Shown one piece after another: positions 2,961 to 28,500 of a stretch of DNA of 29,900 nt. This stretch comes from a virus. Its lineage: Duplodnaviria; Caudoviricetes. Made by a program: the position numbers and the translations under genes. Positions within the stretch are counted from its first letter, which is position 1. Each line of letters opens with the position of its first letter. The notes under the pieces were generated by a model that ran no database searches, was not told the origin of the DNA, and was given only the letters and a program-made list of their open reading frames with translations. The DNA lies in IMG/VR virus record IMGVR_UViG_3300037427_003387, positions 1 through 29,900 of that record. One strand, 5' to 3'.

Positions 2961-2968
2961 TATTTAGG
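2961..2968 (-). promoter_or_regulatory. Putative T4-like late promoter core (CCTAAATA) overlapping the upstream stop codon
   Basis: Minus strand reads CAC-C-TAA-ATA-ACACTGTAACGACTACTATC-ATG. It resembles the T4 late consensus TATAAATA and lies 20 nt before the ATG at 2940. Confidence 0.55.
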
Positions 2969-4559
2969 TGCCATCGTAAGTTTGTAATGTAGAGTCCATA
3001 GTAGATGAGGTACTATCGAATCTATTATCGGTGCTACCACCACTTCCTGTGCCAGTAACTGTTAGTGTTACTGCATTAGAATCTAGTGGTGAGTTAGATG
3101 CTGCTGCTGGTGCCCCTATAGGACCAGCGATCCTACAACGATACTTGTATCCAGTCATATATGACAGGGCAGTGACTGAATACGTGTTAGTTGTTGCTCC
3201 AGTTATAGCAGCGAATGCAAATCCACCATCTGTAGATCTATACCACTGGAATGCCACTGGTCCGTCCTCTGGACTGACAAGTTTAGTAACTGTAAATGTA
3301 GCAGTTTCACCAGCATTGACAGTAGCATTTTGTGGTTGTAGTGAGAATGACAAGACAGGTAAAGGACCATCTCCAGCACCGCCTCCATCGCCTCCAGAAG
3401 CAGGTGTTTCACTAGTGAAGGTAGTATCAATAGTTTCTCTAGTCTTTAATCCAATAATAAAAGGAAACTTAGTAATATCTGTGTTAGTTTCATCTACTGT
3501 TAGGAAATATGCATAGGTACCATCCTGATATTCAGGTGTAATAGCAAATCTTCCATTGTGAATATCTAAATCACCTGTCCCTTCAGCATATTCATAGTCC
3601 TCCATGAGAGTACCAGCAGGAGGATTGTCACTTGTATTTCCATAATCAGGTCTTCCTGCAATTTCGGTGTCTCTGACAGCATAAGAAGTCCTCATTGTCC
3701 TAGTACCACTCAAATTATCGAATGGTGTGCTATATCCATACGGTCCATAGATGGGGAATCCATCAAATGATATACCAATCATCTTGGAATGACCGTCTGG
3801 GTGACGAATATTATTTCCATTATACTGAGTTGCACCATAATAGTCGTTATATGATGCCATAGATGACCCTGATTTCCAACAATCTAGGAAATGTGGGTCA
3901 TGATAGTGGTAAATTCCAGATTGCTCTGGGTGACCACCACAGTTATCCTCTCCAGAATTGACAAAACTGAGATCACCAGCAGCAACCCAACTAAAACCAG
4001 AGGGAGGATTGAGTCCACTACCAGCAGAAGGGTTAAAAATGGCAACTCCATTGCCAGCAATACCAATTTGACCTAAAGGAGTATCAAGTCTTGCATTTCT
4101 CTGGTCAAAATACTCCATTGTGCCACTAACAGGAGTAGTTGCTTGATCATCTACAATGAAATCTAGTGTTGTATCTGAAGATAACCAACACTCACCTTCA
4201 ATAGAAGTGAATGTTGTGCTCTTAAATACGAATTTTTGCTTCAATCCATCACTAAAGTTAACAAATATATGATCATCAACACGTATATCTGCTGCACCAC
4301 CAGTGAAAAGTGCTAAGTCGTTTGTGGAGATTGTTGCTCTTCTAACAAATCCGTCATGCGTATATCCAGTATTATCAAATGTGCGAGCAATTCCAAATGT
4401 TCCTCCACGGTATAAGAAGTCATGATCCCAATCCTTCTCCTGTATAGTGTTAGGGTTATTATCGTTAGGAAACGCACCAGGAATCACAGGAGCAGGGAGG
4501 GCATCCGATGCTACTGTGATTATTTTAGTTGCGTTATTGTAGGAAGCTGTTGCTGCCAT
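2964..4559 (-). CDS. YHYH-domain protein with C-terminal Ig-like domain (531 aa), probable virion protein
   Basis: Motifs IGIAGNGVAIFNP, CGGHPEQSGIYHYHDPH, HSKMIGISFDGFPIYGPYGY and DLDIHNGRF...YAYFLT...FPFIIG define YHYH. A Gly linker is followed by the Ig-like QPQNATVNAGETATFTV...FQWYRS...YKYRCRI. The tail is FDSTSSTMDSTLQTYD. Confidence 0.88.
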   Translation of the reverse strand: MAATASYNNATKIITVASDALPAPVIPGAFPNDNNPNTIQEKDWDHDFLYRGGTFGIARTFDNTGYTHDGFVRRATISTNDLALFTGGAADIRVDDHIFVNFSDGLKQKFVFKSTTFTSIEGECWLSSDTTLDFIVDDQATTPVSGTMEYFDQRNARLDTPLGQIGIAGNGVAIFNPSAGSGLNPPSGFSWVAAGDLSFVNSGEDNCGGHPEQSGIYHYHDPHFLDCWKSGSSMASYNDYYGATQYNGNNIRHPDGHSKMIGISFDGFPIYGPYGYSTPFDNLSGTRTMRTSYAVRDTEIAGRPDYGNTSDNPPAGTLMEDYEYAEGTGDLDIHNGRFAITPEYQDGTYAYFLTVDETNTDITKFPFIIGLKTRETIDTTFTSETPASGGDGGGAGDGPLPVLSFSLQPQNATVNAGETATFTVTKLVSPEDGPVAFQWYRSTDGGFAFAAITGATTNTYSVTALSYMTGYKYRCRIAGPIGAPAAASNSPLDSNAVTLTVTGTGSGGSTDNRFDSTSSTMDSTLQTYDGT

Positions 4560-4579: not shown

Positions 4580-7500
4580 TGTCATCAAAGATCAGATTAG
4601 GTGTGAAGTTACTGATTACAGTAGCACCTGTCTGGACGCTTAAGATAGCGGATAGTGAGTAAACTGGAGTTGCACCAGCAGCAGTGATTGCGACTCTGTA
4701 TTCGTCACCATCGTCTGCCTGTGCTGTAGCATTTGTGTTGTATGTTGCTTGGTTAGCACCAATGATGTTGCTCCAAGTCTGTGTACCATACTCCTTCTTC
4801 TGCCACTGATAATTCATTGTTTGACCATTAGTTACCGTAGTAACGACTGTGAATGCAGCAGTATTACCTTGGTTAACAGTTACGTTAACTGGATCCTGTG
4901 TGATTGCAATTGTGCCAGGAGTGATTCCACCACCACCACCTTCTTCACCAGATGGTCCTTCGCCTGCGAGCACGTCAAATCCACCGTTAATTGGACCACC
5001 TGTAGGTGGTACGAAATCATCTGGGACTACGTTATCGATTGCAACCGTTGGTGCGGTATAACCAACACCACCAGTCTTAACATCAATACGTGTAATACCC
5101 ATCAATGCTTTAAGTTTTCCATCAAATCCTGAAGAGGAGATAACGTCAACGTTAGGACGGTCATTGTAACCATCACCAGGATTGGTTAGTACTGCGTTAG
5201 TAATCTGACCAGAGGTTATTGCTGAAATAGCATCAGCGTTTCTACCCTTAACAGATCCAGTGTATTCAAATGTGATCAGTGAGTTAGAAGACTCAATTAG
5301 AGCAACTTCTCTTGCAAATTCTTCACCCTCGATGTCAAGTAAATCGCCAGCTTCAACTGGTGGGACTACTGTTGCTGCAATAACGTCAGCGTCAGATCCA
5401 ATGTATGAGAAACCAACGAATGTTGATCCCGCACGTGGGACTTCAGCGAATATTATACGTGAACCAACGATCTCATATGCGACTCCAGGTTCCTGAATGA
5501 TACCGTTAAGTGAAACGATAATATTATTCTCAGGACGGATAGTGTTGGAAGAAACACCCTCAGTCAATGTTAAGGAGTAGAATAGTCCACTACGCTTAAG
5601 GTTGAATGAAGATCTCAATGAGTCAAACTCGAAGGAGATATCATCTAACTGACGTAACTTACCAACGTAATATCCAATGAATTCAGATCCAATCTCAGGT
5701 GCCTCAGCAAATTGTATTTTGTCAGAGAATGCAACGTAAGAAGCATTACCACCAGGAGGTTGTAGGATACCATTAACGAATGCTAACAAGTGACCAGCAG
5801 GATCAGGGAAGTATGCCTGACCATTAGAAATGGTTAGATCAAATATTGTTTGGACTCCATCAAATCCTCTGAAGTAACGATCAACTCTACCCTCTAGTGT
5901 GCGAGCAGAAGAAACACCTGCACCCCATCCAAAGTCAGACTTGAGTGACATGTTATCAAGGAATGTACCACTAGCAGACTGTACCCAGATAGTAGCAGTA
6001 ATACCTGCTTGCTCTATAGCAACCACCTGTGCGTAAGACTGATAATCAACTGCGGTGTATCCACCAACACCAGCATATATTGTTGGGAAGTTTGATCCAA
6101 TATCAATCTTACCAATATTATTACCAGCTTGTGTTAGGTCTGTTAGAGGAGCACCAACACCAACGGGGTTGATATTAGCAATCCAGAGTTTATGTGATAA
6201 TGGTGGTACAGCAGTTGCATCTTCTTCTTGATACTTGGTAACAACAGCAGTGAATCCTGGATTCTTCTGGACGGTACCTTGTAAGAGAGAAACAGTATCA
6301 CCAACGTTGAATGTATCAGAGATACCAGTATCAACAATTGCTAGTCCTAGATCTAACTCTAGAGTCTGGACACCATGTATCCACTGATTAAGTTGAAGTT
6401 GTGTACCACTAATACCCTTAATATCTAAGATGTAATCAGTAACACTACCGTAAATAATATCACCTGGGATCCATGCTTCTCCTAGAGTTTCTACATCAAT
6501 TGCAATTCTACCACCCTCATTATCTGTTAGGGATCCAGACTTACTTGAATAATTATCCATGTATGCTTCAACGGATCCAACCTTACTGAAGAACCAATCG
6601 CCTGTAGCGAATGCTCCATTCTTAACATTGATTAAGAATCTATCAGTAGGAGTACCGACTGTATGCTCTGCACCACTATCAACACCTTCAATTACATCAC
6701 CATTAGCAATGGTACCAGCAACAGTATGAAGTTTCACGAATGATACACCTGACTCACTATCAGGTTTCAACATCTGTAATACAGATCCATTATTACCAAC
6801 TGCTCCCTGTACTTGTGCTACTTCTCCATTTACAAATTGATCGTATGTTCCTGGAGTTGTCTGTGAAGCAACAGTTGGATAATGAGTAAAGAGTTTGTAA
6901 ATCTCACCTTCGTTTTGTTGAATAGTACCAATCTCAGCGTTAGCATTAGATGAGGATCCAAAGACAACATCAGCAGGATTAAATCCACCTTGTATTGGGC
7001 ATTCTGAAGGATCAGATGCGAATGTAGCAGTAGATCTTGTAATACCACTTCTTCTTTCAACTGCCAATATCTGAGATCCAGCGTTGGACTTGTCTATTTG
7101 AAGTAATCTAAATCTACCATCATGGATATATGAAGCACCGATTTCAAACCATTGGGCAGTACCAGTTAGGACATAGAAGTGCGGTTGACCAGTAAGTCCT
7201 GTCAATGAATTCTCAGATGCAGGAATGTATGTTAATACATCACCACGACGGAAGTTATTAGGACGATTAATTCTAATTCTATACTCAGCACGATCATAAC
7301 CTACATTAACTTCAGGTGTTAAACTTACTAGATCAGGATCAGTGTTATAGTCAATACCCATCTCATACTTAGTAACACGGTTAGTAGCATCAGTAGATGA
7401 AACGAATGTTACTCTTGCCTCAGTTGGGAATTGTGACATCTCTAGAGCATACTCAATTGGGTTGAGTGAAGAGTCAATCATAAACTCAGCAGCTTCTTTA

Positions 7501-10500
7501 TTCCACTCTAATTTCTGTGGTGCTGGTATGAAGTAAACATCATATGGATCCCAACCAGTTTCAGCAAAGTCAAACAATACACTCTTACTATATTCACGTA
7601 TTCTTGCTAGACAGAATAGGAGATGAGTCCTTGTTACATTCTGGAATGCAATGAAGTTACCTTCACCATCAAACCAGTTTTGTGATAATCTAAATGATCC
7701 AGAATTACCAGAGGTTACCAAATCATATCTTACTGCCTTAATAACATCATTAGCGAAATCAATAGTTAAGTTAGTAGTTGGATAATTTGTTTGAGTCTCA
7801 GCGAATGCTCTACCAGCAATTGCTTGCTGATTGAAGAGAATCATATTAGCAATTCTCTTATTGTTATTTTCTCCCTTACCAAGTGCATCAGTAAAGAAGT
7901 CCATCAATGTATCAATCGCTGATGTTACGTTATAACATGTACCTTCTTGGTAATCAGCATTGCTATTGTATGGGAATGTCTTGGTTATTCCACTAAGAGC
8001 ATTGCCGTTGCCATTTGCTGCATCACTAATAGTATCAATGAATATATCAGCTAATGTATTAATACCAGCAGCAGTTTCAGCACATGTTATATTCCATGTA
8101 CCTTGATCATCTTGACCACCATTTGAGAAGTCATAGGTAACATCAACATCTCTAATAACAACATCTGGTGTATACTTGACGGGCCAAACAATTGGCATAT
8201 CGTATGATCTAAGTGCAACGTTATTAGGATTGCTAATAGCATCCGTTACTAACTGCATTAATGTACCAATCTGAGATTCTACATTAGCACCTTCATTACC
8301 TGTATATTGAGTTGAAACTCTACGTGCACGATAGTATGATAGATCTGTCCTGAGTGGATATGCATAAGATAGTACTGACTGGACAGGCATTATCTTACCG
8401 TCAGCGTAATCTGTCACACGAGGATATGTGTGGTTAGTAGCATTACTATCTTGACTACATGTGAATGTTAGTCCACCAGTATCAATCGTTACAGCATCAT
8501 CTGTGCGTAATGCATGACCAGCAACAGTTAACGTTAGTTGACCTGTAGTTGGCTCATAGTATGCATCCGTAGGAGTTAATGTTGTGCCATCGTTGACATT
8601 AGTAATACAATTAGATGCAGCACTTACAAAGTTATGCTTATAGTTACCACCCTGTATAATACATCCAGAGTTTGCACTCACGAATGTGTGCTGGAATGTT
8701 TTACCAGCAGGTGATACACCTACGTTAATTCTTATCTTACCATTCTGTATTCTAATTCCTTTCTCAATACATGACTTAAATGTATGATTTCCTAGGAATG
8801 TTGATGGGACACCTTTAAGTACTTGGACATCAAATTGAGTTGTAGTTACATTAGATACTGCCAACCATTCATTACTTGCATGGTCTGTAGCACGAGGATA
8901 TAAGTGCTCAGTACGGTGAGCATCTAGATCACATGTAAATGCTAAGGCATGATCTTTTATGTAAATGTAATCATTTGCTTTCCATATACCATTCTCCTTA
9001 GCAGAGATAAAGGTATGTTGATAATTACCACCACCTATAACAGCACCAGGTAATGCACTATAGAATGAATGATCATAAAGATTATTTGAAGCAGCAATAT
9101 TTACATCAACTGTAATCCAACCACTCTGTCTGTGTAGAGAGTTATTCTTAAATACCTCGAATGTATGAGTGTGGTTACCACCAGCAGTAATGGCACCTGA
9201 AGTAGCAGAAGCAAATCTGTGTGTATGGTTACCAGCAACAGTAGATCCTACATTAACAGTGAATGTAGAATTCTTCTTCTCTAATCCTTCAGAAACAGCA
9301 CTTACATATGCGTGTGTATATTCACCACCACCTCTAACTGTGCCTCTAATGATTGCACCAGTAGCAGCAGATTCAAATTGGTGAGTTGTAGTATTAGAAG
9401 AAACTCCTACGTTAACATCAAATGTATTTGTCTGCTTATTAGTGATTGTTAACCAGTCACCAGAAGCAGGGTCTTGTCTTCTAGGATAAGCATGATCACT
9501 TGCAAAACTATCTTCCTGACACTGGAATACAATAGACTCATTCATTATCTGAACCTTATCACCATTCTCAAATGGGTGACCGTTGAGTGTCAATGTTAAT
9601 ATACCTGTACCTGGAGCATATGCTGCACTTGATGGAGTAAAGGCATTTTCAGATCTTACAAATTGATGAAGTGTAGTGTTACTTGACTTACCAACATGTA
9701 CTGTAATTGTCTTAGCAGTAGCAGAAAGGATAGGGATAGACTCATTGTAATATGGGTCATCAGCAGTAGCACCACCGTTACCATTAGCACGAGGATACTT
9801 ATGCTCACTACCAAAGTTATCTGCCTGACACTTGAATACTAGTGACTCTTCCTCAATATAGACTGCTTCAGATGCAACCTTAAGTCCATTAGTACCAGCA
9901 GACACAAATGTGTGTGGTGAAGTTACAGACTGAGGAGCAGAAGATAGGACTTGGACATCAAATGTATCATCAGTGATATTTGTAATATCTAACCATCTAT
10001 CACTTGCATAGTCAGTAGATCTTGGGTATGTGTGATTGTCAGTAGGATTATCAGCATTAGCAATACCCACTTGGACATCAATTGTAGTTGCTTGTGGATT
10101 CAATACTGCAAGTTGCTGCCCAGATGCAGGGTCAGTTGCACGTGGATATGCGTGGTTTGTTGCATTATTATCAGCATCACAAGTAAACGTTACACCACCA
10201 TTAGCAATGGTAACTGTATTTGAAGTTGTTAAACTATGTGATCCAATTTCCAAGGTCATCACACCTGTGGTTGGATTATAAGTTGTGCCAGAAGCAGCTG
10301 TGTATGTGCTACTACCATCATTAACAGCATTGTTAACACCACTTACAAATGCGTGGGTGCCAGTAGATGCAGCACAATTAAATGTTATGGAGTTATCGTC
10401 AAACTTAACTCTGTCTCCGATGACCAATCCATGACCAACTACTGTCGATGTTAATATACCAGTTGTAGGATTATATGCAGCATTAGTAATTGTATGCTCT

Positions 10501-13500
10501 GATCCACCGTTAAAGTTATGATCACCTATAGTCAACACCATATCACCTGTAGTAGGCTCATATGTTGCAGCAGAAACTAGGTAGTTAGCACGAGGTGTCT
10601 TACCAACTTGGACGGTAAAATCATTACCAGAAACACCAGAAACTTCTAACCATCTATGTGATGCATAATCAGTTGGTCTAGGATAAGAATGATTAGATGC
10701 ATTATTATCCATGTCACAGGTCATTACTAGAGAATGATCAGCGATTCTTATATGGTCACCATTTGCAAATGGGTTGTTAGCAACTGTTAGTGTTAATACA
10801 CCAGTAGCAGCATTATATGCAGCACCAGTTGCTGAGTACTTAGCATGACCTACTGCCTTAATTTCAATAGCATGATCGTATGCTCTATCTCTCTTCGCCT
10901 TAAGTCCGTTATTAGCAAATGATTGGAAACTGTGTGTGAATGATCCACCAGATCTGATTGATCCTCTCTTAACAGCACCAACTACTGCTCTCTTAAATGT
11001 ATGAATAGAAGTGTTGGTAGAAGGAATAGTATCTAATACTTGTACTTGGAATGTATCGTTAGTAACATTCTGAAGTGTCAACCACTTATTACTTGCTGGA
11101 TCACCATGTCTAGGATAAGCATGCTCAGTTGCATGATCATCTTTACCACATGTGAAGATCAATGAATTGTCTTCAAACATGATCTGCTCACCATTTGTCA
11201 TTCCATGACCAGCAATAGTAACAGTCATAAGACCAGTACCACCACTGTATGAAATTGCGGTTGGAGTAACTCCGACAGCAGGTTTGAATACGTGAGTTGT
11301 AGTGTTAGAAGATGCACCAACGTTAACAGTAATGGTACTATCATCAACAGCAGTTACAGAAACAGCATCTTGATATGCTGGGTCGTCACCAGATGCACCA
11401 CTCTCTCCATTTGCACGAGGATAGAAGTGATCAGTTTGATAGTTATCTAATCCACAAGTAAAGCAGAATGCTTTATGGTTAATGTATACGCTGTGAGCAG
11501 TTGTAATACCGTGGTCAGGACCAACAGTGATTACCATTACACCTGTATTAGGATTGTAATCTACATTCTGAGGATCGAAACTCTTAAACTCAGACTTACC
11601 AACAAAGATCTTGTATGTGTTAGCATCGATATACTCGATAGGCTTCCACTTACCGCTAATAGGATCAGAAGATCTAGGATAAGTCTTATCACTGGTACTT
11701 CCGTCCATTGTGCAACGCAAGGTTATTGCATTGTCATTAATCTTAACAAGTGATCCTTCATCCAATCCATGAGCATTAGAAGTAATTGTTAAGTAACCTG
11801 TTACTCCATCGAATACAGCATTTGTTGGAGTGAAACTATCTTCAGTAGATCTTGGATATGCATGTGTAGATCCATAAGAGTCTTGACTACACTCCATTGT
11901 GATTCCACCAGCAGCAATCTGGACGCTCTGACCAACCTTAAGTGGATGAGTACCAACAGTGATTTCCATATCACCTGTAGTAGGCTCGTATGATGCATTA
12001 GTTGGTGTGTAACTAACAGCAGCAGTTGTGCCTACGTTAACATCAAAACCATTCTGAGATACATTAGAAATCTGTACCCACTTACCACTGATAGGATCAG
12101 TGCCTCTAGGATATGCATGAGTACTGGAATCGTTATCCATGTCACAAGACATATCTAAAGCATAATCATCAATCTTAATGTAATCTCCATTAGAGAATCC
12201 ATGATTTCCTAATGTCATTGCCAAGACACCTGTGCTTGGTGTGTAGGTAGCACCAGTTGGTGTCCATCTTGTTACACCATCATCAATGATTCTAAGTGAA
12301 TTATTATATGCAGGATCAGTTGTCCTTGGATATGAATGAGTGGTATTATTACCATCCATTGTGCAAGTAAATGTTATAGCATTCTCAGGAAGTTTGATGC
12401 TGTCATTACCTTTCATTAAGGTAGCAACAGTTATACTCTTAGGTCTAGCAGATACAAACGCATGAGTTGTAGTATTTGTAGATGGAATATTGAATAAGAC
12501 TTGGACATCAAATGTATCCTTAGTGACATTATTAACTGTCATCCACTCATCACTAAATGGGTCAGATGCCCTAGGATATGAGTGATTAGTCTGATCACTA
12601 TCTTGATCACATGTGAATGTTACGAATCCATCCTCTACCTTAATTCTGCTGCCATTCTTAAGACCGTGGTCAGCAACAGTCAATGTCATAATACCTGTAG
12701 AAGGAATATATGCAGCATTGGTTGGTGTTAACTGTGCAGGAGCAACAAACTTATGCTTGTAATTACCACCAGTAGCAACTGTTGCTCTGACAATAGCACC
12801 TGTTAGAGCACTCTTAAATGTATGAAGAGTTACGTTAGTTGATGGGATATTCTCAAGTACATGCACATCAAAGGTATCATCAGTGCAATTTGATATAGTT
12901 AACCACTTATTGTTTACTGGGTCGGATGTCCTTGGATATGAGTGGTTAGTAGCATTAGCATCCTTTAAGCATGTGAATACAAGTGAATTAGTATTAATCT
13001 TAATACTCTCTCCATCCAGGAATCCATGATTAGGTACTGTAAGAGTCATCCAACCTGTTGTTGGATTGTAGTTGGCACCTGTTGGTGTGTATGCTTCAGT
13101 TGATGGAATGAATGTATGATTATAAGCACCACCAGATCTTAGAGCATTGGAAACAGCACTCTGGAATACATGGGTTGTTGTATTGGAAATTTGACCATCA
13201 CCAACATCCAATGTTATAGATCCAGTCTGTCTATGTAATGAATTGTTTTCACAAGATACAAATGTATGATCGTAAACATCATTAACACCAGACTTACCAA
13301 CATGGACAGTAAAACTAGTATTACTTACATTAGAAATAGGTAACCAATGTCCAAATGTAGGATCTGTCTTTCTAGGATATGTGTGGTTAGTAGCGTTATT
13401 GTCTTTAGTGCACTGTAATGTAATAGCATTCTCATCAAACATTACAAAGTCATTTGCCTTCCAAACAGCATTAGATGCCACAGATTGAAGCACATGAGTT

Positions 13501-16500
13501 GTAGTGTTAGAGATAGCACCTTCACCTTGGAAGTTACCAACGTTAACATCGAATGAATTACTACCAACATTAAATGCTTTTAACCACGTGCCACTAGCAG
13601 GGTCAGATGATCTTGGATATGCATGATCTGATGCTTGACTATCTTCATCACAACGGAATGTAAATCCACCATCAGCAAGGAGTAACATATCACCATTCTT
13701 AACGCTATGACCATTGAGGTTAATTCTCATGGTACCTGTAGCAGGATAGAATGTAGCACCAGTTGGTGACATTGTGCTATGGTTGCCGAAGCTGTTACTC
13801 ATAGTAACTACCATAGTACCAGCAGTAGGATTATACTGGACGTTAGTTGGACTATGATCTGTCTTACCTACTTCGTGGATAGGAATATTTGTATCATAGA
13901 AGTAATCCTTCTTATGTGTAATACAGTTTGTAGCAGCAGGAGCAACAAAACTATGGATAGTAGTATTTGTTGATGGAATTACATCTAATACTTCAACATC
14001 GAAAGTATTCTGTGTAACATCGTGAATCATCATCCACTTACCACTGATAGGATCAGAAGATCTTGGGTATGTGTGGTTGGTTGCATCAGCATCCTTCTTA
14101 CATGTGAATGTTAGAGAGTTATCAGCAATCTTGATGTAAGAGTATTGAATGAATCCATGATTAGGTACTGTAAATTTAATATGACCTATATTTGGATCAT
14201 ATGAAACGTCTGTAGGTGTGTGAGATGTTGTAGCAGATCTTGGATAAGCATGATTGCTTGATTGTCCATCTTGATCACATCTAAATGTGATTGCATTATC
14301 TGCCAATCTAACACTATCACCAGCATGACGTAAACAATCAACAGTAGAAGTTGAGTAAGTATGATCATAAACACCACCACTTACAATCTGTGCTCTAGTA
14401 ATACAGTTACCTACAGCACTAGAGAATAGGTGAGTTGTTGTATTACTCTGAGGTATATCTGTGTTAACAGTAACATCGAATGTGTCAGCAGTTACATTAG
14501 AAATCTTTAACCATGATCCAGAAGCAGGGTCACCAGGACGAGGATAAGCATGAGTAGTCTGATGATCATCCATAGCACATGTTAATAATATGCCATAATC
14601 ATCAATCTTAATCTGGTCACCATTTTCCATACCATGACCAACAACGGTTACTGTCATAACACCTGTAGTAGGATTATGATTAACATTTGTTGGGGTCATT
14701 CCACTATTAGGAACGAAGGTGTGTGCACTTAGATCTGATATAGCACCATCACCAACGTTAAGGGTAATAGTAGTATCTGTTGCAGATTGGATCTGAATAT
14801 TCTTATTGTAGAATGGATCATCACCAGTAGCACCACCTTGACCATCAGCACGAGGATAAGCATGGGTGCTATTATTAGCATCCAAGAAACATGTGAATAC
14901 TATAGATTCAGTTGCTAACCTTACACTATGACCAACCTTAAGATTGTGGTTACCAATAGTTGCAACCAGCACACCACTAGAAGGATTAAATGTAGCAGAG
15001 CTTATTGTGAATGGAATAGCAGGTGTCTTACCTACATGGACATCAAATGAATCCTTAGATACATTACGGACATCCATCCACTTACCACTCATCTGATCAG
15101 ATGACCTAGGATAAGCATGTACTGTTGCATGGTTATCCATTGAGCAAGTGAAACTTACTCCACCATCAGCAATCTTAACAAAGTCACCTTCAGCAAAGTT
15201 ATGGTCTGCAACGGTTACTCTCATCAAACCAGTTTCACCGTTATACTCACCACCAGAAACGCTATGAATGCTAGACTGACGGAAATTAAACTTCCTGTCT
15301 GTGGTTAATACTAACTTACCATCACTACCAGTAAATGTAGCACCAATGATGTCATAGTTAACTGTTGGTGTAGTACCTACGTTAACCGTAATAGAATCTG
15401 AAGTAACAGCAGTAATTCCTATTGGCTCATTGTGTGTTGGGTCAACAGGTCTTGGATAACTATGCTTAGTCTTGTGATCATCCATGTCACAAGTAAATGT
15501 CAATGACTGTTGTGACAGTTTAATATTTGTGCCGACTGCTAGATCGTGTGATCCAATGAATAATTGAAGAGCACCAGTAGTAGAATTAAATGTAGCAGAA
15601 GTAGGTGTGAAACCTTTGATTGGAGATGGACCAACATTAACAGTGAATGTACCACCTTCTATATCAGTCTCAACAACTTCTAACCACTCACGAGTAGCAG
15701 GATCGGTTGCTCTTGGATAAACATGATCACTATAGTGATTATCCATTGAGCAAGTAAATGTCATGCTATTCTGCATGATCTGAATCTGCTCACCTTTAAC
15801 AATCTTATGTCCAGGTACTGTTAGTTTTAACCAACCTGTATCAGCAGTATATTCTGCATAGGTAGCAACATGGGTAGAAGCACCAACAAAACGATGCTGA
15901 CCGATGTTCATTTCTAACTCACCAGTATTCTGATCGTAAGTAGCATTAGAAACATCATACTCAACTTTAGGAGTAGATCCTACATTAACAGTGAAGATAT
16001 CATTATTGACAACAGACTCAACTAATAACCATTGATCACCAGCAGGGTCTTTCTGTCTAGGATAACCGTGCTTAGATTGATGATTATCTTGTGCACAAGT
16101 AAAGATTAAAGATCCATTTTCTATTCTTACTTGATCACCAGTCTTAAATCCATGATCATCAACAGTTAATGTTAATACACCACTATCAGGATCGTATGCT
16201 GAATCAGTAGCAGTATGAGTTGTATGATCTGACATTCCATGATTAGGAACTGTCAGAGTCATAATACCTGAATCTGGTTTGTAAGTTGCAGCAGTTGCCT
16301 TATGATCAACACTATAAGTCTCTAATACTTCAACAGCAGTATTACCAGCAGGGTCACCAGACCGAGGGTAAGTATGAGTTGTAGCGTTAGCATCTTGGTC
16401 GCATGTAAAACTTATAGAATTGGTTGCTAATCTAAGGAATGTACCTTCTGTATGATTATGTGAACCAACATTCATTATTAGATCACCAGTGCTGGAATCA

Positions 16501-19500
16501 TATGCAGCATGGGTGCAGTCATACTTGATAGTAGGAGCAGGACCAACATTAATTGTAAATGTGTTAATTGTAGAAGGCTCACCAGCACAGATAGAAGTAC
16601 CACCTTGGACACCATATCCAGAGTAATCTGATCCAGTCCATCTTCCAGGATCTGTATCAAGACCTGTATATCCACCACCTTGTGTTTCAGCAGTACCAAC
16701 AGATACACCGTCAATCCATAATTGGACTTTACCTTTACCAGAACCTTGGTTACCACCAACGTTGATCTGCCATACTAATTCATGGTCACCATCATCAAAG
16801 TATGCACCCAAAGTGCTGATCTGTAGATCAAGCATTGCCATTGCAGTTTCAGTATGACCCGCACCACCAGCATATGCATTAGCACCATTACCAGCACGAA
16901 GTCTTAAATATGTGCCATTATCTCTAACACCTATCCATGAACCAGCACCAGTACCACCTGATTCCCAGATGACACCATCAATAGGATTGGATGCTAATTT
17001 AACAATACAACGGAATACTGCATCCTCAGTACCTACTAAACCAGTGGCACTATCAGTTGTAGAAATCTTATCTTCACCAGCTTTGAATGATCTGGTAATA
17101 ATATTATTAGATTCACCCTCTATTAATCCATCCTCATCTGAGTTGAATAGTGAAGTTGTAGGTCTTGGGACAGCATCATAGAATCTCTGATCTACAGTCC
17201 AACCAGCATTATTACTGATTACCTGACCCTTCATCGCACGAATTGCATATTCCTTCGCTTTGTTAATAATCCAGTTAGTCTCAGCAGCAGCGTTAGTAAC
17301 ATGATCTAAGTTACCTGAGTAGTTTGTATAGAACTCAGATGCATACTGAAGCATATTAGTACCACCATACTTGAGGTTGAATACCATCGCTCTAAGTATG
17401 TCAGTAACGTCATGGACGCAGTTAACAGGACCACCAGGAATTGCTAAGTTTGGATATTGCACTAAACCAGCAGCAACTGCTTGCTCTGCAACGTATCTGA
17501 TGTTTCCATCAATAGCATCACCACACTGAGCAAATAGAAGGTCTTTAGGATTCTGATTGTAACTCTGTACTGGTTTTGATTGTATTGTTTCTGACATATC
17601 ATAATCTCTACCAAATGCATTACGCATTGTGCAGGTCAAGATATCTCTTAAAATCTTAACTACAGTTATAGATGCTTCCCACTCAGTCTCAATATGCTTA
17701 AGTGAATCGTCTTCTGTCTCAACATATAATGCAGCAGCATCCCATACTTTCTCGTTACAATTCATACGCAAGTCATGAACCATAGCTTCGATCATGTCTA
17801 AAACATCATCTTCACAATTAACATGACCACCAGGAATGTTTAGAGTCTCATACTTGGAAAGGTCATTCATTATGCTGACACATTCCCTAGCGATGACTGC
17901 TCTGTTATTCCAGATCATATTAGCAGCATCAAGATATCTGTCGTTATTTGCTCTTTGAATATTATTAGGATATCCTTCAGAGTCCTTAACGATTGTAGAA
18001 TCTCTATATGCTGTTTTACTAGTCCACTGAGGGGCATAGTATTCTTCATGTGCCCATGCAGGAGCATTCAATGCATTACCATCATTATCTAATAGTGAAG
18101 AAGGAACTTCACCAGGAGACATTAGAAGGTTATTAACTGCCTTCATAGCAAGCATACTAGTATATTCAAATGCATCATTTAATGCACTTAGCTCATGCTC
18201 AACATGAATTATATTATCTTGACTGTCAAGATACTTGTCTATAGCAGATTGTACGTTATAGGTACCACCAGTTACTAAGTCAGCAATTACAGCAGGAATG
18301 ATATATCTCTTAATATCATTCCTACACCCTGACGCTCCAGTACCAGGAATTTCAAGGAAGTCAAAGACTACACTATCAATAGTTGCCTGATACTTATTCT
18401 GCACATATCCTTCTACTTCTTCAGCAATATAATCTCTATTCTTCCAAAGTTGGAATCCACCTTCTCTGAATCTCTGATCGTTAGGTGCAATAACCTTAAG
18501 AAGATCAGTCATCAAAGTATCAACTTCATCTTGTACTGCCTGTGATGCAGGAGATGAGAAGTTATTAGGTATTCTATATCTTGTAGTATATGTTCCTGTT
18601 AGAGTTGTACTAGTTGTAGTTATTATTTCCTTAGTAAGTTTTGCTACTTCATTCCAAACATATAGAGATTGTAGAATCTCTTCTCCAATGAAATCTAACT
18701 TACCACTAACTGTTAAATATGTCCTTGCAGTATAGATGGTGTGATAGTTACCACCTTCTCTAAGGTCTTTGATTAGAGCACCAAGGATATAGTCCTTAGT
18801 ATCTCTGATACATGTATCAGTACCACCATAGCTGTTTTCACCAGGGACATCACCACGAATAGTGAAGTCACTAAATGCTGCCTTCATTCTACCTACAGCT
18901 TCTTCAGCAATGTAAGCACCGTTAAGGTCAATGATGTCAGCACAGTCTCTATAGTCCTGACGACCTAGATCAATTTCCTCAGCAATGATTGCTAAGTTAG
19001 CATAGTCGATTACTTTAGAAGTTGCAGAAGATGATCTCTGACCACTATACTTAGCATATACTTCTTCAGTAGATAGTATAAATGGTGCTTCCCCATCTAG
19101 ACCAAATACAATGTTAGCATCAGTAAAGTCTGGATTAGTAGGTGAAGTGAATCCCGTTGTGTAATCACCAACACCCTTCTTAACAATAACGTTATCTACA
19201 TGTCCTGACCAATGGTTAGCACCGTTAAAGTCTTGACCAACATATAGAGCAGCATATAGGTAATCGTTGTTATCAACATAGTTACCACCAAGTTGAGCAC
19301 CATTTACATACAACTGAGTAACATTATCCTTTCTGGAGACAGCAATGTGCATCCATGAACCAGTTGTTGTAACTACGTTACCACTGCTAAGAAGTAAAGT
19401 TGTGCCATTATAAACCTTAATTGCTTGGACATCTTGGACAATTCTCAATCCCTGAGAAGCACTTAAACGACGGAAGTCAAATAAAGTCTGAAGAGTTGTA

Positions 19501-22500
19501 TTTACAGCAGGACGTATCCAACCTTCAATTGTGAAGTCTCCAGTACCTAATTCGTAATCTGTAGATGCAGGACTACTTAATGATCCATTTGAAGGAATAT
19601 AGATGGATTTCGATCCACTCAATTCTGCTTTCTTAACAATTACACTTTGAGTGCAATTTGTGTAAGTTAAAGTGGAATTAGTGATATATTCATCAGCAGT
19701 GAATGTACCAGTAATAGGTCCAGCGAATAACCACTTAAGACCAGAATTAACTCCAATTGCGGAGAATAGTGCTCCAGAAGACATACCCTTGATTTGGTCA
19801 CCAGTTATGAATAAACCAGTTGACTTATCCTTATAACCAATCTTAGTTGTCCTGATTGTTTCAGAATCTTGGAATGTGCCGTCTGTAATAGATGCAATTG
19901 CATTAACGTTAGCTAAAGTACCTGCTGTCATTGCAGTTGTAGCAATGGATTTCAAGGTATCGATAGAAGATTTAACGTTAGCACAGTTACCAATATTTTG
20001 ATTATTACCAGATGCATAGTTTGCATCGTATCTATTAGCAGGAGCAACACCACCACTGTAAGTAGTAGGATCATTAAGGTTATAACCAACCCCACTCATA
20101 TCCTTCCAATACATTAGGTTATTGATTGCACTATGCATCAATGTACCAGCAGTTGTAAAGGCATGGACTGCTTCTGCTTCTTCACCAACAATACCGTTAG
20201 TTAGAGGGACACCAGCATCATCGAAGAATTTTTTAGTGAATTCAACTGTATTATAGTTACCACCAGATCCAACATCAGCAGCGATAGAATCAATGAAATA
20301 ACCAAGGTCTCTTCTGCACTTTTCTTGATGAGGTGAGTATGTACCAACACTTTCAGAAGGAAGGTCAGCTAGACTTGCATTATTCAATGCCTCATCAATA
20401 AACTCATGTAGAGTTGTAATTGCTGCCTGAACGTCTGAGCAGTTGTCAACACCATCATTTGCAGCGTTAGATCCAGCAGTACCGTAAGCATCTCCAGGTG
20501 AAGGGTCAGCAGTGATTGTAAGGTCTTGATATGCCGTCCAAGAGTCTCCAGAGTTAACAGCACTAACTGTACCTGAATATTGGTTAGCAATTGCTTCTTT
20601 CATCCTATCCCTTGCTTTTTCAAAGGCATAACGTGTTTCAGCAGATTGAGCACTTACATAAGTGAATGTTCCGTTAGTATCGAAGAATTGTTGAGTAAAC
20701 TTACGAGCATATCGGTTTCCACCTGCATAGATGTCTATAGAGATTGCATCGACTAAAAATTCGATATCTCGCTTACATTTGGCATCTGAAGGAATTGAAG
20801 AAGAAGGATATTGGGTTTTCATGTCATCAAACGCCATTCCAGCGATTAATGCCTTATTCTTCTGAATCATCCTGTAAGCGTCTTTAAAACGACTCCAGTT
20901 GTTAGTAATAACGTCAGATGGGAAATAGTAGTCTGGATAGTCAATTGCAATACTTGCTTCAGCGAAATCGATGATTTCATCCTTATTATTCAGGATATTG
21001 CGTTTTCCATCAAGATATCTGTTTGCAGCAATTCCGTGGAAGGTAGATACTGGATTTCCGTAGAATGCCTTCTTATTACGGATAGTCATACCATCAGTAA
21101 GCACACCACCAGTCAATTGACTGTAAGTAACCTCAGTAGTCCTAACTTCTTCAAAATTCAAGAAGTCAGCGTTAATTCTATTCTCAGAATCATAAAGTTT
21201 GGTTGGAGTAATAGAAGACTTGGAAATATCATCTAGGATGACATTAGGGTTAGTTAGACTAACTAGACGCTCAAATAATAGTCCGAAGAAGGTAGTTCCC
21301 TTGTTAATGATTAATTCTTCAACAACTTCATTATTAATAGGATCAGTGTAAGGTGCGATGTATGTAATCTGGCCTGCAATCTTAGATGAGGCAGAATAAA
21401 TGTACTCATTGAGTCTAAAGTCAAAGATACCAGTTTCAAACCTAGGAGTACCTGAAGTCTTACTTACAACCACTCTATCGGTTATAGCACCTTGTGTATC
21501 AACGTTAGTCTCTTCAATATAAGCAGTATCACCATCTAAGTTAGTAAGTGCTTCACCAAACTGGAATATAGTAGGACTGTTAACTAGGGTTACAGTTTCT
21601 ACTAATGCAGCAAATAATTCACCTCTCTTAATCTGCTCATTGAGATCGAAGGTACCAGTTAAGTTAATAACGTCAATATGATTAGTACCAGAATCAATAA
21701 CAGTACCAATTGTGTCACTATTTTCTCCCTGAACCTGCTGACCTAATGATGGGAAAATACCATAGTTAGATCCACCACCAGACTGATAAAGTGCAATTCT
21801 ATAGATTGGTGTTGGGGTAACTGCCATAATTCTATAGTTAACCTTAGAAGGTGGTTTAGGTGGCTCAGCAAATACTAAACTACCACCAACGATCTGATAA
21901 GAATCACCAGGAGACTGAATGATACCATTCAGAGTTATCATCAACTGGTCTTGCTTAACGATTATAGTCTCACCTTCTACAGTAACTGGGAATTGTTTCT
22001 TAATACCATCAAACTGATCTTGGATACTATCAAGTTTCTTAACGATAGAAGTTAGAATTTCCTCAGAAGAAGTTAGACGCTTCTTACGGAAAAGAACCTC
22101 AGTATTGTTGTAGTCGGTATAGATTGGTTGTGCAGCACCAAATGATGTAATCTGGTTTACATTACTATAGTTGTTAATATTAACTTTCTTAGTAAACTCA
22201 GTACCAATTCTACGTCCAGATACGTCCTTACCACCAGTCAGTTGTAACTGACCAAACATGTTGAAACCAGCAGGGTGGTTATTTTCTAATACCTGTGTTT
22301 TCCACTCTGTAATAGGAATCTCAGACTGGACAACATATGAGAAGTTCTGATAGAAGAAACTATCTTGGATCTTCTGGACAATCTCAGATGGTTTACCAAC
22401 GTCATCAATAAATCGGCCTGGTGTCTTCGTTAGGGAGCCAATATTCAGCACACCACGAGCAATAGAGAAGTTATCGATAATACCAGATGCTTTAGATATC

Positions 22501-25500: not shown

Positions 25501-28500
25501 CAGTTGGTCAAACTAGCAACAGATAAAACAGTCCAAGTAGTAGTAACCTCAATATCAGAGAATGTGATATTGTTGTATTTTGTTAGACCAGTAAGAGCAT
25601 ATGCATCTCTCTTATCATGTAATCTATCAAACTTAATAAGAGCAGAATCTGAGATAGATGTAGTAATAGGAATCTCAGCAGTTGGGACAACGTATGTTCC
25701 GTTATATGGAGCAATATCATCAATTAAAAGATCATCAATCCAACCAATGAATGAAGTTGATGCAACAGGTCCAGAATACTTACCTGCAAGAGTTACATCA
25801 GCAACACTCATATCAGATGTAGACTGGAAGTTACATACAAGGTTACCATTGAAGTATACCTCATACTGATACAATCCTAGAGATTCTTCTCTCTTCTGGA
25901 ATGTAACGTGTACCCAAGAAGCACTAGCAAATAATGTCCAGTTAACGGCAATAGCAGATGATGCAACCTTTACTGAGTTAACATAGATACAAACCTTTTC
26001 ATAGTCACCACTAGTAGTGTCTCCATCCAATTCTACTTGAATAGAATCACCAGCAACTGGAGTTATATCAAATAATAGTGGTTTATTGTTACCTGCATGA
26101 TGAGCAGTTGCCATTGACATCCATGCTCTGAAACTCCACTCCTTAGAAGTTAAATTATAACCAGGGAATTTAACAGGGCATGCTCCACTCAACTTAAGTG
26201 ATCCAAGACCAAACTTCTGAATTGCAGTATCTACACTACTATTTGATGGAGTATGGAATGTTGGAGTTACTAATTCTTGCTTTGTAGTATCTTCATCAAT
26301 GTCAGCATCGTTATTGAAACGATATGATGCCAACTGATCTGCTTGTCTACGATCTATAGAAATAATACAATCGCCAGAACTGTCTATTGTATGTCCCTTA
26401 GCTTGGAAACCAATATTATCAATATCATCGACTTTAGTTTCCTTAATTACATTACCGTCATACTTGAGGTAATGTATTACAGAGTATCTTTGATTCTCTG
26501 ATTCTTGGACATCACTTACAATAGTATAGTTACCAAAGTTATCTACACTAACACCTGCATGATTGATACCATCAACGTTACCACTTATGCTAAGAGTCTT
26601 ACTCCATTCCCAAGTACTATTTGCATCAGATAGTGCAAACTTATTAACCTGTATTTTCTCGAATTTCTGAGTAGCACCATTATATACATCCCAAATTAGG
26701 ATTACATCATCATATTCGTCAATAATGAATTCTGGATTTCTTACATATCCATTAGCAGTTGGTGATTGTCTAATATACTCAATTTCTAAGTTTGCACCGT
26801 CATACCAGAATATACCGACAATACAGTCATCATTCTGATCGTTAACACCAACAAAGAAGAATCTATCATCAGATATCCATTTAATCTGATTGATCATCTC
26901 CGAATCATTAGCGGAAGCTATCTTTCTCTTCTCTACAAGGTCACCATCTAAGTCACACTGAATGACCCACATATCATTAGGATCAATAGAGTTACTATCT
27001 GTATAACCTGCAAGATATATTCTCTTCTCTTGGTCAAGTGCTATACTTGTTATCCAGTCTCTTCTTGAAAGACCTGAGATACCTGCAATTGCTTTCTGCC
27101 ATCTAAGAATACCATCTGGAGCATTAGCATTATTAAATCCAGAATCATATACACCTAACCATATATCTGGATTATACTGTGAGTTATTAGGATCATATGT
27201 TTGACCACAAATATAGATAACATCATTCTCTAGAGATTCATCAATATGCATTTTGATGAATTCTGACTTCTTAGTACCAGAGTTTTGAGGTAATAAGTTT
27301 CTCTCCCAAACCTTCTGGCCTAAATCGTCAAACTTAGCAAGAAATGCTGCTTGATCACCATCTGGCTCAAGGATACTACCACAGATATAAGTGTAACGAT
27401 CAGCAGTAGTCCATTGGTCATGAATAGTAGTAGATCCAGTAGCTTCTTTATATTCGGTTATCCAATAGCGAGTCTTCTTATACTGCTGTGGATGTGACAC
27501 CCTAATTTGAGGAGGATTGTTAGCATCATATGCATTACCAGAGTTAATGATATTAACCTTATTAATCTGACCAGTACCTTCTAGGACTAGAGCTAACTCA
27601 GCATCCTTACCAGAGGCAGTTATCAATTCAAACGTAGGTGGAATATCGTTATTATATCCAGTACCAGCCTGGACTACGTTAATCCTCTCAACACCAGCAA
27701 CAACCTTAACTCTATAGGTCTTATTAGTGTTATCGATAACAGGACGTGAGTTTACAATAATTTCGTCTTGTTGACGTAATTCATGTCCAGTCTCAGTTAC
27801 GATTTTACCGTATGGACGGTCACCGATTACCTCTTTCTGATAACCAGTAATCTTTTGACCCTTAACAGAATCAATAATAGCAGATGCACCGAATCCACCA
27901 GTATTTTCATTATCGAAGAATACGGTGTCATTTACCTGATAAGAAACACCTGGGTTTTCAATAACGAATCCATCAATCTTAGCATTTTCAAATTGAGTAG
28001 TTGTCTCAACTTCAATGTCAACCCTAGACTCTTCTGATACTCTTGGGAAATAATCATAGATTTGTAGAGTTGCCTCTTCAGACATCTGTAGTAATTCTTG
28101 CTGCTCATTAGCATCAATCAGACCATCATTGTTAGAGTCTTGTATTTCAAAGATAATAGGATATCCTTCTTTCTCAGTCGTAAGGACATCTGCCTCTTGG
28201 TTTGGTTGACGATCAACATCAATATCAACGTCAGTGTATGGATCTCTATAACGAACAACACCATCAGGAATATTTTCTTGTGTTGCTGCCTGATCGAAGT
28301 TCCATCCATCTGGAAGTGAGTTGAATTGTGGTCCCATGATATATGGGAATTCAGCAAGACCTGCATCACTAGCATCAATGGTTATAAAGTAAGCATAGAC
28401 TCCTTCAGGGAAATCAGGTGTCTTACAGAAACGACCATTATAGTTGTCTAGATCACCAGACTGGAAATCATAATAGTAGTCATCAATGAATGTACCAGCA

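Follow-up and report, generated by a model that had tools for sequence, protein, structure and literature searches.

The window analysed here is a whole 29.9-kb contig (29,900 nucleotides; IMG/VR virus record IMGVR_UViG_3300037427_003387; Duplodnaviria, Caudoviricetes), which ends inside a giant open reading frame (ORF) encoding a gp7-like virion structural protein. Within this protein, 26 copies of one predicted barrel of approximately 102 residues are nested in one another at six predicted loops; this region likely folds into a branched tree that is probably a structural scaffold on the phage baseplate. At the level of sequence, the nesting, the six sites and their adaptors, the recurrence in distant relatives, two circular permutants and the existence of filled and empty alleles were established. 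The fold, the positions of the loops and the re-closing of split hosts were predicted by modelling. The protein, the tree and the two pieces of its root domain, D0, are located as follows.

4575 to beyond 29900, minus strand: giant gp7-like virion structural protein, at least 8441 amino acids, 5' end off the contig
8370-16568, minus strand: tree of 26 self-nested barrel domains of ~102 amino acids, 11 levels (amino acids 4445-7177)
16521-16568, minus strand: root D0, first piece (second strand of the C hairpin); circular permutant with the order C-E-A-B-Y
8370-8648, minus strand: root D0, second piece (E, then A, B, YPR and the first C-hairpin strand), from the bracket and Viterbi parses

Five motifs, each present in 26 copies between amino acids 4445 and 7177, defined the domains. 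Regular expressions matched exactly 26 times for three of them; the copies of motif A (26 of 28 matches) and motif E (26 of 71) were chosen by eye. The order of the motifs parses like brackets with a maximum depth of 11, and none of 100,000 shuffled token orders gave a clean parse. An anchor-free parse, using a jump-enabled Viterbi algorithm with a profile of 78 leaf domains (alignment A1), yielded identical fragments; it was steady at jump penalties from -6 to -12 and collapsed at -15. Copies of one family are thus nested, and domains are both guest and host, as in recursive same-family insertion. The two circular permutants are the root D0, opened in the C hairpin, and D24, in which the E segment comes first. 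The root reaches ~230 bases below the lower bound given in a preliminary description of this DNA, and leaf D10, previously placed at ~14394-14709, was located at 14391-14696. An assembly artefact was rejected, as the same or nearly the same tree was found in independent IMG/VR contigs and nests were found in the cultured phages P-SSM4, P-SSM2 and P-RSM6.

The printed junctions and the two parses agreed with the earlier count of 25 insertions at six host positions. Eight of them lie after C, five each after A and inside E, four in the C hairpin, two after YPRS and a single one after the Cys. The children at each site are listed below, with the loops numbered by the strands of the leaf model described later.

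Site 1, minus strand, after A (predicted loop b2-b3; printed junctions and leaf model), 5 children: 8976-16214, 12408-15869, 14322-15263, 13455-13769, 9873-10493
Site 2, minus strand, after Cys (predicted loop b4-b5; both parses), 1 child, the E-first permutant D24: 10050-10376
Site 3, minus strand, after YPRS (predicted loop b5-b6; printed junctions), 2 children: 13911-14219, 10890-11831
Site 4, minus strand, C hairpin (predicted loop b6-b7; printed junctions), 4 children: 8751-16301, 13230-13853, 9129-12263, 9276-10835
Site 5, minus strand, after C (predicted loop b7-b8; printed junctions), 8 children: 8649-16520, 9030-15956, 12768-15608, 13131-15353, 14376-15008, 9180-12008, 10947-11576, 9327-10580
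Site 6, minus strand, inside E (predicted loop b8-b9; printed junctions), 5 children, all leaves: 14391-14696, 12783-13088, 12423-12728, 10962-11267, 9342-9638

The residues at which each host resumes had also been read correctly. The printed junctions showed ANDY, ANDF, AGDS, GNDS and ASEA after A; KKDYFYD and KRDRAYD after YPRS; RQTGSITLDVG, RQSGWITVDVN, KKNSTFTVNVG and IQNGKIRINVG in the C hairpin; GG in 8 of 8 after-C returns; and AQIVS, ATVAT, ATLMK, GSIRS and GTVRG inside E. The proposal that each site carries its own re-entry signature was upheld in part: the adaptors do differ from plain domains, but some of what was read as signature is ordinary domain consensus resumed. Likewise, one signature per site describes the window, but a second after-C signature was found in relatives.

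The sites were then compared among relatives. Of 54 fetched loci, 29 were parsed, the others duplicating the same contigs fully or nearly so. Among 12 distant loci, including P-SSM4, P-RSM6, P-SSM2, Syn1 and Sf-CH3, the trees vary in size and shape; 78 of the 87 returns fell within six bins that comprise 38 of 82 columns, and five exact columns accounted for 52 of the 87. Searching 1.84 billion representatives with a profile retrieved 728 proteins. Among the best 150 of these, 146 had parsable regions, and 235 of their 292 returns fell in 30 of the 82 columns; a reversed-sequence control gave 1 return versus 169 (60 regions). These counts leave out pieces shorter than 12 residues and hence are blind to the inside-E site. 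E-first children at site 2 were also present in P-SSM2, in loci L024, L029 and L054 and in 7 representatives. The six sites are thus a property of the domain family, beyond the window protein. Candidates for a seventh site were not accepted: the returns at columns 9-13 (9 of 292) mostly belonged to the C hairpin and had been mis-assigned to a strand of similar appearance, columns 17-23 held variants of the after-A site, and 3 of the 292 returns fell in loop b3-b4; a rare seventh site is possible. The parsed stretches contain from 1 to 27 barrels among relatives (11 in P-SSM4, 1 in S-RIM8). L029, an IMG/VR contig of 202,519 bases, carries an independent tree of 26 barrels, ~10 deep, which differs in shape and has an after-C return motif particular to it, and in Sf-CH3 one four-domain subtree is present twice. 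Nests of the same barrel are also present in another giant gene (Sf-CH3_88; Syn1_101, "tail fiber protein", phrog_5342; L045:3106-14811; L047:5878-16020).

Across these proteins the adaptors could be quantified, the adaptor and tryptophan frequencies being counts per junction and not per independent event. GG before the last His was present in 64 of 110 after-C returns and in 4 of 272 plain domains (per protein, 43 of 59 versus 4 of 133). C-hairpin returns carry Arg (67%), Gln (85%) and Gly (88%) where plain domains mostly have Val, Thr and Asn or Thr, respectively, and at the after-A site the GD-type motif decays (Gly 26% versus 73% in plain domains). Trp at column 62 was found in 40 of 68 children after A, 32 of 38 in the C hairpin and 11 of 18 after YPR, versus 3 of 96 after-C children, and in 0 of 48 C-hairpin hosts. 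This pattern indicates two barrel types with site preferences. Since after-C children and C-hairpin hosts lack the column-62 Trp, the parts of the tree are not freely interchangeable. Cys40, His21, His89, Asp56 and the Tyr-Pro-Arg motif are invariant in the 78 leaves (12783-13088 and all copies), and His49 and Asp43 nearly so. Covariation weakly links columns 40-89 and 52-89, and the invariant Cys/His/Asp/Tyr-Pro-Arg set possibly forms a metal site.

To locate the sites on a structure, one leaf and one subtree were modelled with AlphaFold2; confidence is given as the predicted local distance difference test (pLDDT) and the predicted template modelling score (pTM).

12783-13088, minus strand: leaf D14, nine predicted strands, pLDDT 96.0, pTM 0.87
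9183-12017, minus strand: D17 subtree, 9 domains with all six site types, 945 amino acids, pLDDT 73.8, pTM 0.37
10581-10832 plus 9276-9326, minus strand: split host D21, which superposes on a single barrel in the subtree model

The strands of the D14 model comprise residues 4-8, 13-17, 28-31, 36-40, 48-51, 62-64, 72-76, 89-94 and 99-101. The six sites coincide with six of its eight inter-strand loops, b1-b2 and b3-b4 being unused, and returns inside a strand were rare (13 of 292 versus 25.6% expected). The expectation that the sites are loops held on the predicted leaf, all six lying between strands; the emphasis on only six did not, as with six of eight loops used this is mostly availability. 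That the loops also set branch geometry is a conjecture. Covariation among 450 fragments was consistent with the hairpins and linked columns 2-98 (rank 19 of 4753) as well as 32-100.

The leaf is predicted to be an FCCH/endosialidase-like beta-barrel. The D14 model superposed on the FCCH domain of E1 (Z 7.3, root-mean-square deviation (rmsd) 2.6, 71 aligned), the phi92 endosialidase barrel (Z 6.6, rmsd 2.3, 71 aligned), the FCWL1 tail-tube FCCH (Z 6.5) and an N4 tail domain (Z 6.0), all four superpositions spanning residues 1 to 102; reductase and EF-Tu-type barrels came next. We take the E1 FCCH, endosialidase, reductase and EF-Tu-type group to be RIFT barrels. In a Foldseek search, endosialidases ranked at the top (TMq 0.47-0.49, E 0.017). 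The six-stranded closed antiparallel barrel core of E1_FCCH (PF16190) is present in the predicted models, a Z below 8 not being decisive for homology. PF16190 gave no match at its curated cut-off; D10 and D14 had none at E <= 0.01, and 6 of 78 leaves matched weakly (best E 0.0064). PF12195 matched 5 of 78 leaves (best E 0.027) and was not accepted, and no sialidase family was found in the giant ORF by Pfam. A match to the iota-carbonic anhydrase 7c5x (E 3e-5) was rejected as chance, three weak stretches with single E-values of 5.7, 110 and 66 having been summed; Pfam IgA0_D2 was rejected at 16.8 bits against a cut-off of 27, as were further weak Pfam rows.

The idea that the two ends of the domain must be adjacent was indirectly supported: the two circular permutants, the covarying pair 2-98 and the superposition on barrels that are themselves inserted suggest that the ends lie side by side. 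FCCH is an insertion in UBA1 (PMC12355090), and inserted domains have close N and C termini, about 10-15 A apart (PMC13114784).

In the D17 subtree model, built with 13 sequences, each of the nine domains has 8 or 9 strands. Subtree residues 391-916, comprising D21 with 418 residues inserted, superposed on the 84-residue endosialidase barrel (Z 8.0, rmsd 2.3, 82 aligned), and residues 505-717, comprising the split host D23, on reductase barrels; the subtree model also matched E1 FCCH (Z 7.9, rmsd 2.6, 79 aligned). Split hosts are thus predicted to re-close into barrels at the after-C and Cys sites, and in the model entry and exit coincide with the two ends of barrels known as insertions. At the inside-E site, the tail of D19 is a predicted strand (354-356) that matches the last strand of the leaf, 99-101. 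Strands of 11 residues run continuously across both junctions of D21, the C-hairpin child. A C-hairpin host and its child are predicted to share two continuous strands, which would form a stiff two-stranded stalk.

Comparison with relatives 71-85% identical over the D17 subtree revealed natural alleles of the tree. Loci L006 and L009 lack exactly D23 and D24 (211 amino acids), and L016, L025 and L017-L020 lack D24. Conversely, L008, L010-L014, L016, L021 and L025 have ~100-110 extra residues in D9, which in the 4 loci printed are a leaf at the C-hairpin site; an assignment of this leaf to the YPR site was rejected on that position. In L017, D11 has a plain child close to its Cys site. The empty alleles are ordinary loops. 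L006, which lacks the branch, is sister to L007, which has it (100% support in the tree of the flanks), so that occupancy changes repeatedly and in whole domains. All positions of the tree are about 60-91% identical across relatives and in frame over 8 kb. Leaves are as conserved as hosts (0.805 versus 0.810 identity), and hypervariable tips were accordingly not supported.

Since adaptors are shared by proteins less than 50% identical, the occupied sites were likely inherited and not created by 25 fresh, independent insertions. We infer that a site was rarely opened, that short adaptors arose on both of its sides and that it was afterwards copied along with its host. Whole branches may be gained or lost by recombination between genes, with one crossover near the start and one near the end of a barrel, or alternatively by a crossover between plain and occupied host alleles. 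Paralogues in the window share a mean identity of 40.5% and at most 58% (over 48 residues), and exchange between orthologous genes of related phages seems likelier today than recombination within the gene.

The giant ORF was placed by its non-repeat sequence and its neighbours, which together assign it to the phrog_701 cyanophage gp7-like family. It matched phrog_701, "virion structural protein", with E-values of 0 and 1.2e-254, and its C-terminal part was 53% identical to P-RSM6 YP_007675165.1 over 1171 aligned columns. Downstream follow a YHYH protein, a gp9-like gene and a phrog_22827 gene, three genes whose order matches that in cyanophage P-RSM6.

2964-4559 and ~28370-28810: YHYH domains, borne by the next gene and by the giant protein (Pfam-type domain match)
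1459-2940: gp9/10 N-terminal family gene, order as in P-RSM6
3-1457: phrog_22827/phrog_708 baseplate gene, order as in P-RSM6

A search with the leaf domain matched 179 of 50,697 phage records. Their organism names start with Synechococcus, Cyanophage, Prochlorococcus or Marine, and several carry the annotation gp7 baseplate wedge initiator. The phrog_701 match, the P-RSM6 gene order and the cyanophage leaf matches together therefore point to a giant of a T4-like marine cyanophage in the gp7 position. In P-SSM4 and P-RSM4 the order is gp25, gp6 and then the gene at the gp7 position; the window contig ends inside the ORF.

Other parts of the giant protein were also noted. Pfam identified Laminin_G_3 domains in it. 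The tree lies between a beta-rich domain, laminin-G-like by eye, and helical repeats (~16570-17030, ~17300-20900 and ~7500-8300, minus strand), and a Cys-x-Arg/His-Asp motif occurs in these repeats at amino acids 3042, 3195, 3697 and 4161. Single barrel-like segments of the His-Gly/GD type were seen by eye at ~27800, ~24350 and ~22900 (amino acids ~700, ~1850 and ~2330); in P-SSM2 and several representatives, a host related to these segments carries an insertion after its Cys. A similar Ig-like (phrog_613) domain forms the C-terminal end of both the giant protein and the product of the adjoining YHYH gene.

The role of the tree is the weakest step of the proposal. The most likely one is that of a reach-extending scaffold for contact with the host surface: the tree would project from the phage baseplate and extend or space host-contact modules. 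This function is suggested by the family annotation, by the detection of T4-GC969 in purified S-SM1 virions (PMC3037559) and by FCCH domains, which face outward on siphovirus tails (PMC13576161). T4-GC969 is the cluster at the same gene position, annotated on S-SSM5_094. The two barrel types and the six adaptor-matched sockets, connected in part by stiff two-stranded stalks, could even amount to a generative grammar for a single-chain baseplate dendrimer that phage lineages remodel by whole-branch swaps, a reading that we put forward tentatively and hold to be somewhat doubtful; were it true, branch angle and valency would be programmable from sequence alone.

Several observations weigh against the scaffold proposal or the steps leading to it. 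Pfam gave no match to a T4 gp7 family in the three pieces spanning the giant ORF, and the gp7 label stems from the annotation of relatives, gp6 lying beyond the contig end. A strict separate pattern for the inside-E site was found in 3 of 146 representatives. Regarding the fold, Foldseek gave no match of the D14 model at E <= 0.001, and all Z-scores were at most 8.0, which according to the guidance of the tool possibly reflects a mere common arrangement. Re-closing was seen at two of the six site types, after-C and Cys, and at the inside-E site pLDDT was below 50 for the tail of D22, which is five residues long. The subtree pTM of 0.37 means that relative domain placement and branch angles are not predicted, and 2 of 5 models had a mean pLDDT below 60. 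As for the history of the tree, the pairing of L006 and L007 received 61% support in the internal tree; with an identity of at most 58%, present-day recombination between window paralogues is unlikely and no recent subtree duplication was resolved inside the window. Children at the same site were marginally more alike (248 of 5000 permutations).

The main rival accepts the parse and the fold and regards the barrels as multivalent binders of host glycans, the tree being an avidity device and not a scaffold. The endosialidase barrels of phi92 and K1F are among the best fold matches, and the endosialidase barrel binds polysialic acid. Laminin_G_3 domains in the same protein, the occurrence of the family in the second giant gene annotated as a tail fiber (phrog_5342; Syn1_101) and the invariant surface candidates Tyr51-Pro52-Arg53, Asp56, His21 and His89 would also suit such binders. 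Fold likeness, however, shows no function, and the leaves are no more variable than the hosts, unlike typical receptor-binding tips; we consider this rival unlikely. It is quite improbable, in our view, that barrels simply accumulate in any permissive loop and branch without a selected role. Copy numbers from 1 (S-RIM8) to 27, whole branches missing in close relatives and the occupation of six of eight loops are what tolerated accretion would leave. Against it stand the identity of about 60-91% at all positions, in frame over 8 kb, the type rules at two sites that persist across proteins less than 50% identical and the differently shaped 26-domain trees of separate lineages (the window and L029). 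Finally, the chain might be strand-swapped or form a compact cluster, the five-residue inside-E returns being linkers, so that five sites are true and the inside-E children are tandem siblings. A five-token parse does turn D10, D14, D15, D20 and D25 into siblings, and the low subtree pTM and the poorly predicted D22 tail agree with it; yet the predicted D19 tail strand matches the last strand of the leaf, and the split D21 and D23 superpose on single barrels, which renders this arrangement very improbable. We retain the branched scaffold as the likely reading.

Among the relatives, one and the same site occurs naturally both occupied and unoccupied. These alleles make testable the folding of hosts whose halves lie hundreds to thousands of residues apart, and the origin and spread of insertion sites. 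The tree also offers a structural handle on the largest proteins of marine cyanophages, an abundant group, which have hitherto lacked an explanation. With six branch points tested by evolution, the small barrel could serve as a part in designed branched scaffolds, for which the "modular kit" of the preliminary description is a reasonable proposal. A literature search at the level of titles and abstract beginnings found no published description of this nest. Recursive single-family insertion with branching is already known; new here are the grammar of the sites and its conservation, together with the permutants and alleles and the assignment of the sites to loops.

Among known systems, the T4-like cyanophage gp7 proteins (phrog_701; P-SSM4 gp7, P-RSM6 YP_007675165.1, T4-GC969) form a family of which the giant ORF is a member, with the same downstream genes as P-RSM6; the annotations consulted leave the repeat unmentioned. 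Phage endosialidase barrels (phi92, K1F; PF12195) gave the top Foldseek match and the top match of the subtree model (Z 8.0), and likewise sit in a phage host-contact protein. The endosialidase barrel is inserted into the propeller and carries a glycan site. Unlike the cyanophage barrel, it is present as a single copy in a trimeric tailspike enzyme, and the sialidase domain is absent here. FCCH domains superpose from end to end on the predicted barrel core of six strands (Z 7.3 and 6.5), but they occur as a single copy per protein, whereas the cyanophage domain has a greater length (71-74 of its 102 residues align), carries the invariant Cys/YPR/His set and matches them weakly in sequence. The closest known system is Si3 of the cyanobacterial RNA polymerase beta' subunit (RpoC2), with eight domains, six levels, recursive insertion and bifurcating nodes. 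A survey of 2.7 million classified domains from 2026 names no deeper case of nesting, and its main text does not contain the word phage (PMC13114784). In the Si3 crystal structure, SBHM-2 to -5 are assembled from distant sequence (PMC10895346). As in Si3, copies of one small beta domain are recursively inserted, hosts are also guests and the chain branches. The window protein does not belong to the Si3/SBHM (HABAS) group, being a phage structural ORF with a nine-strand barrel model whose best matches are FCCH and RIFT-type barrels, in contrast to the sandwich-barrel hybrid motif of Si3. Its single-family tree of 26 domains and 11 levels compares with six levels in the survey (PMC13114784), and it further differs from Si3 in its six recurring adaptor-bearing sites, two barrel types, circular permutants and whole-branch differences between close relatives, and in being a virion protein and not an enzyme.

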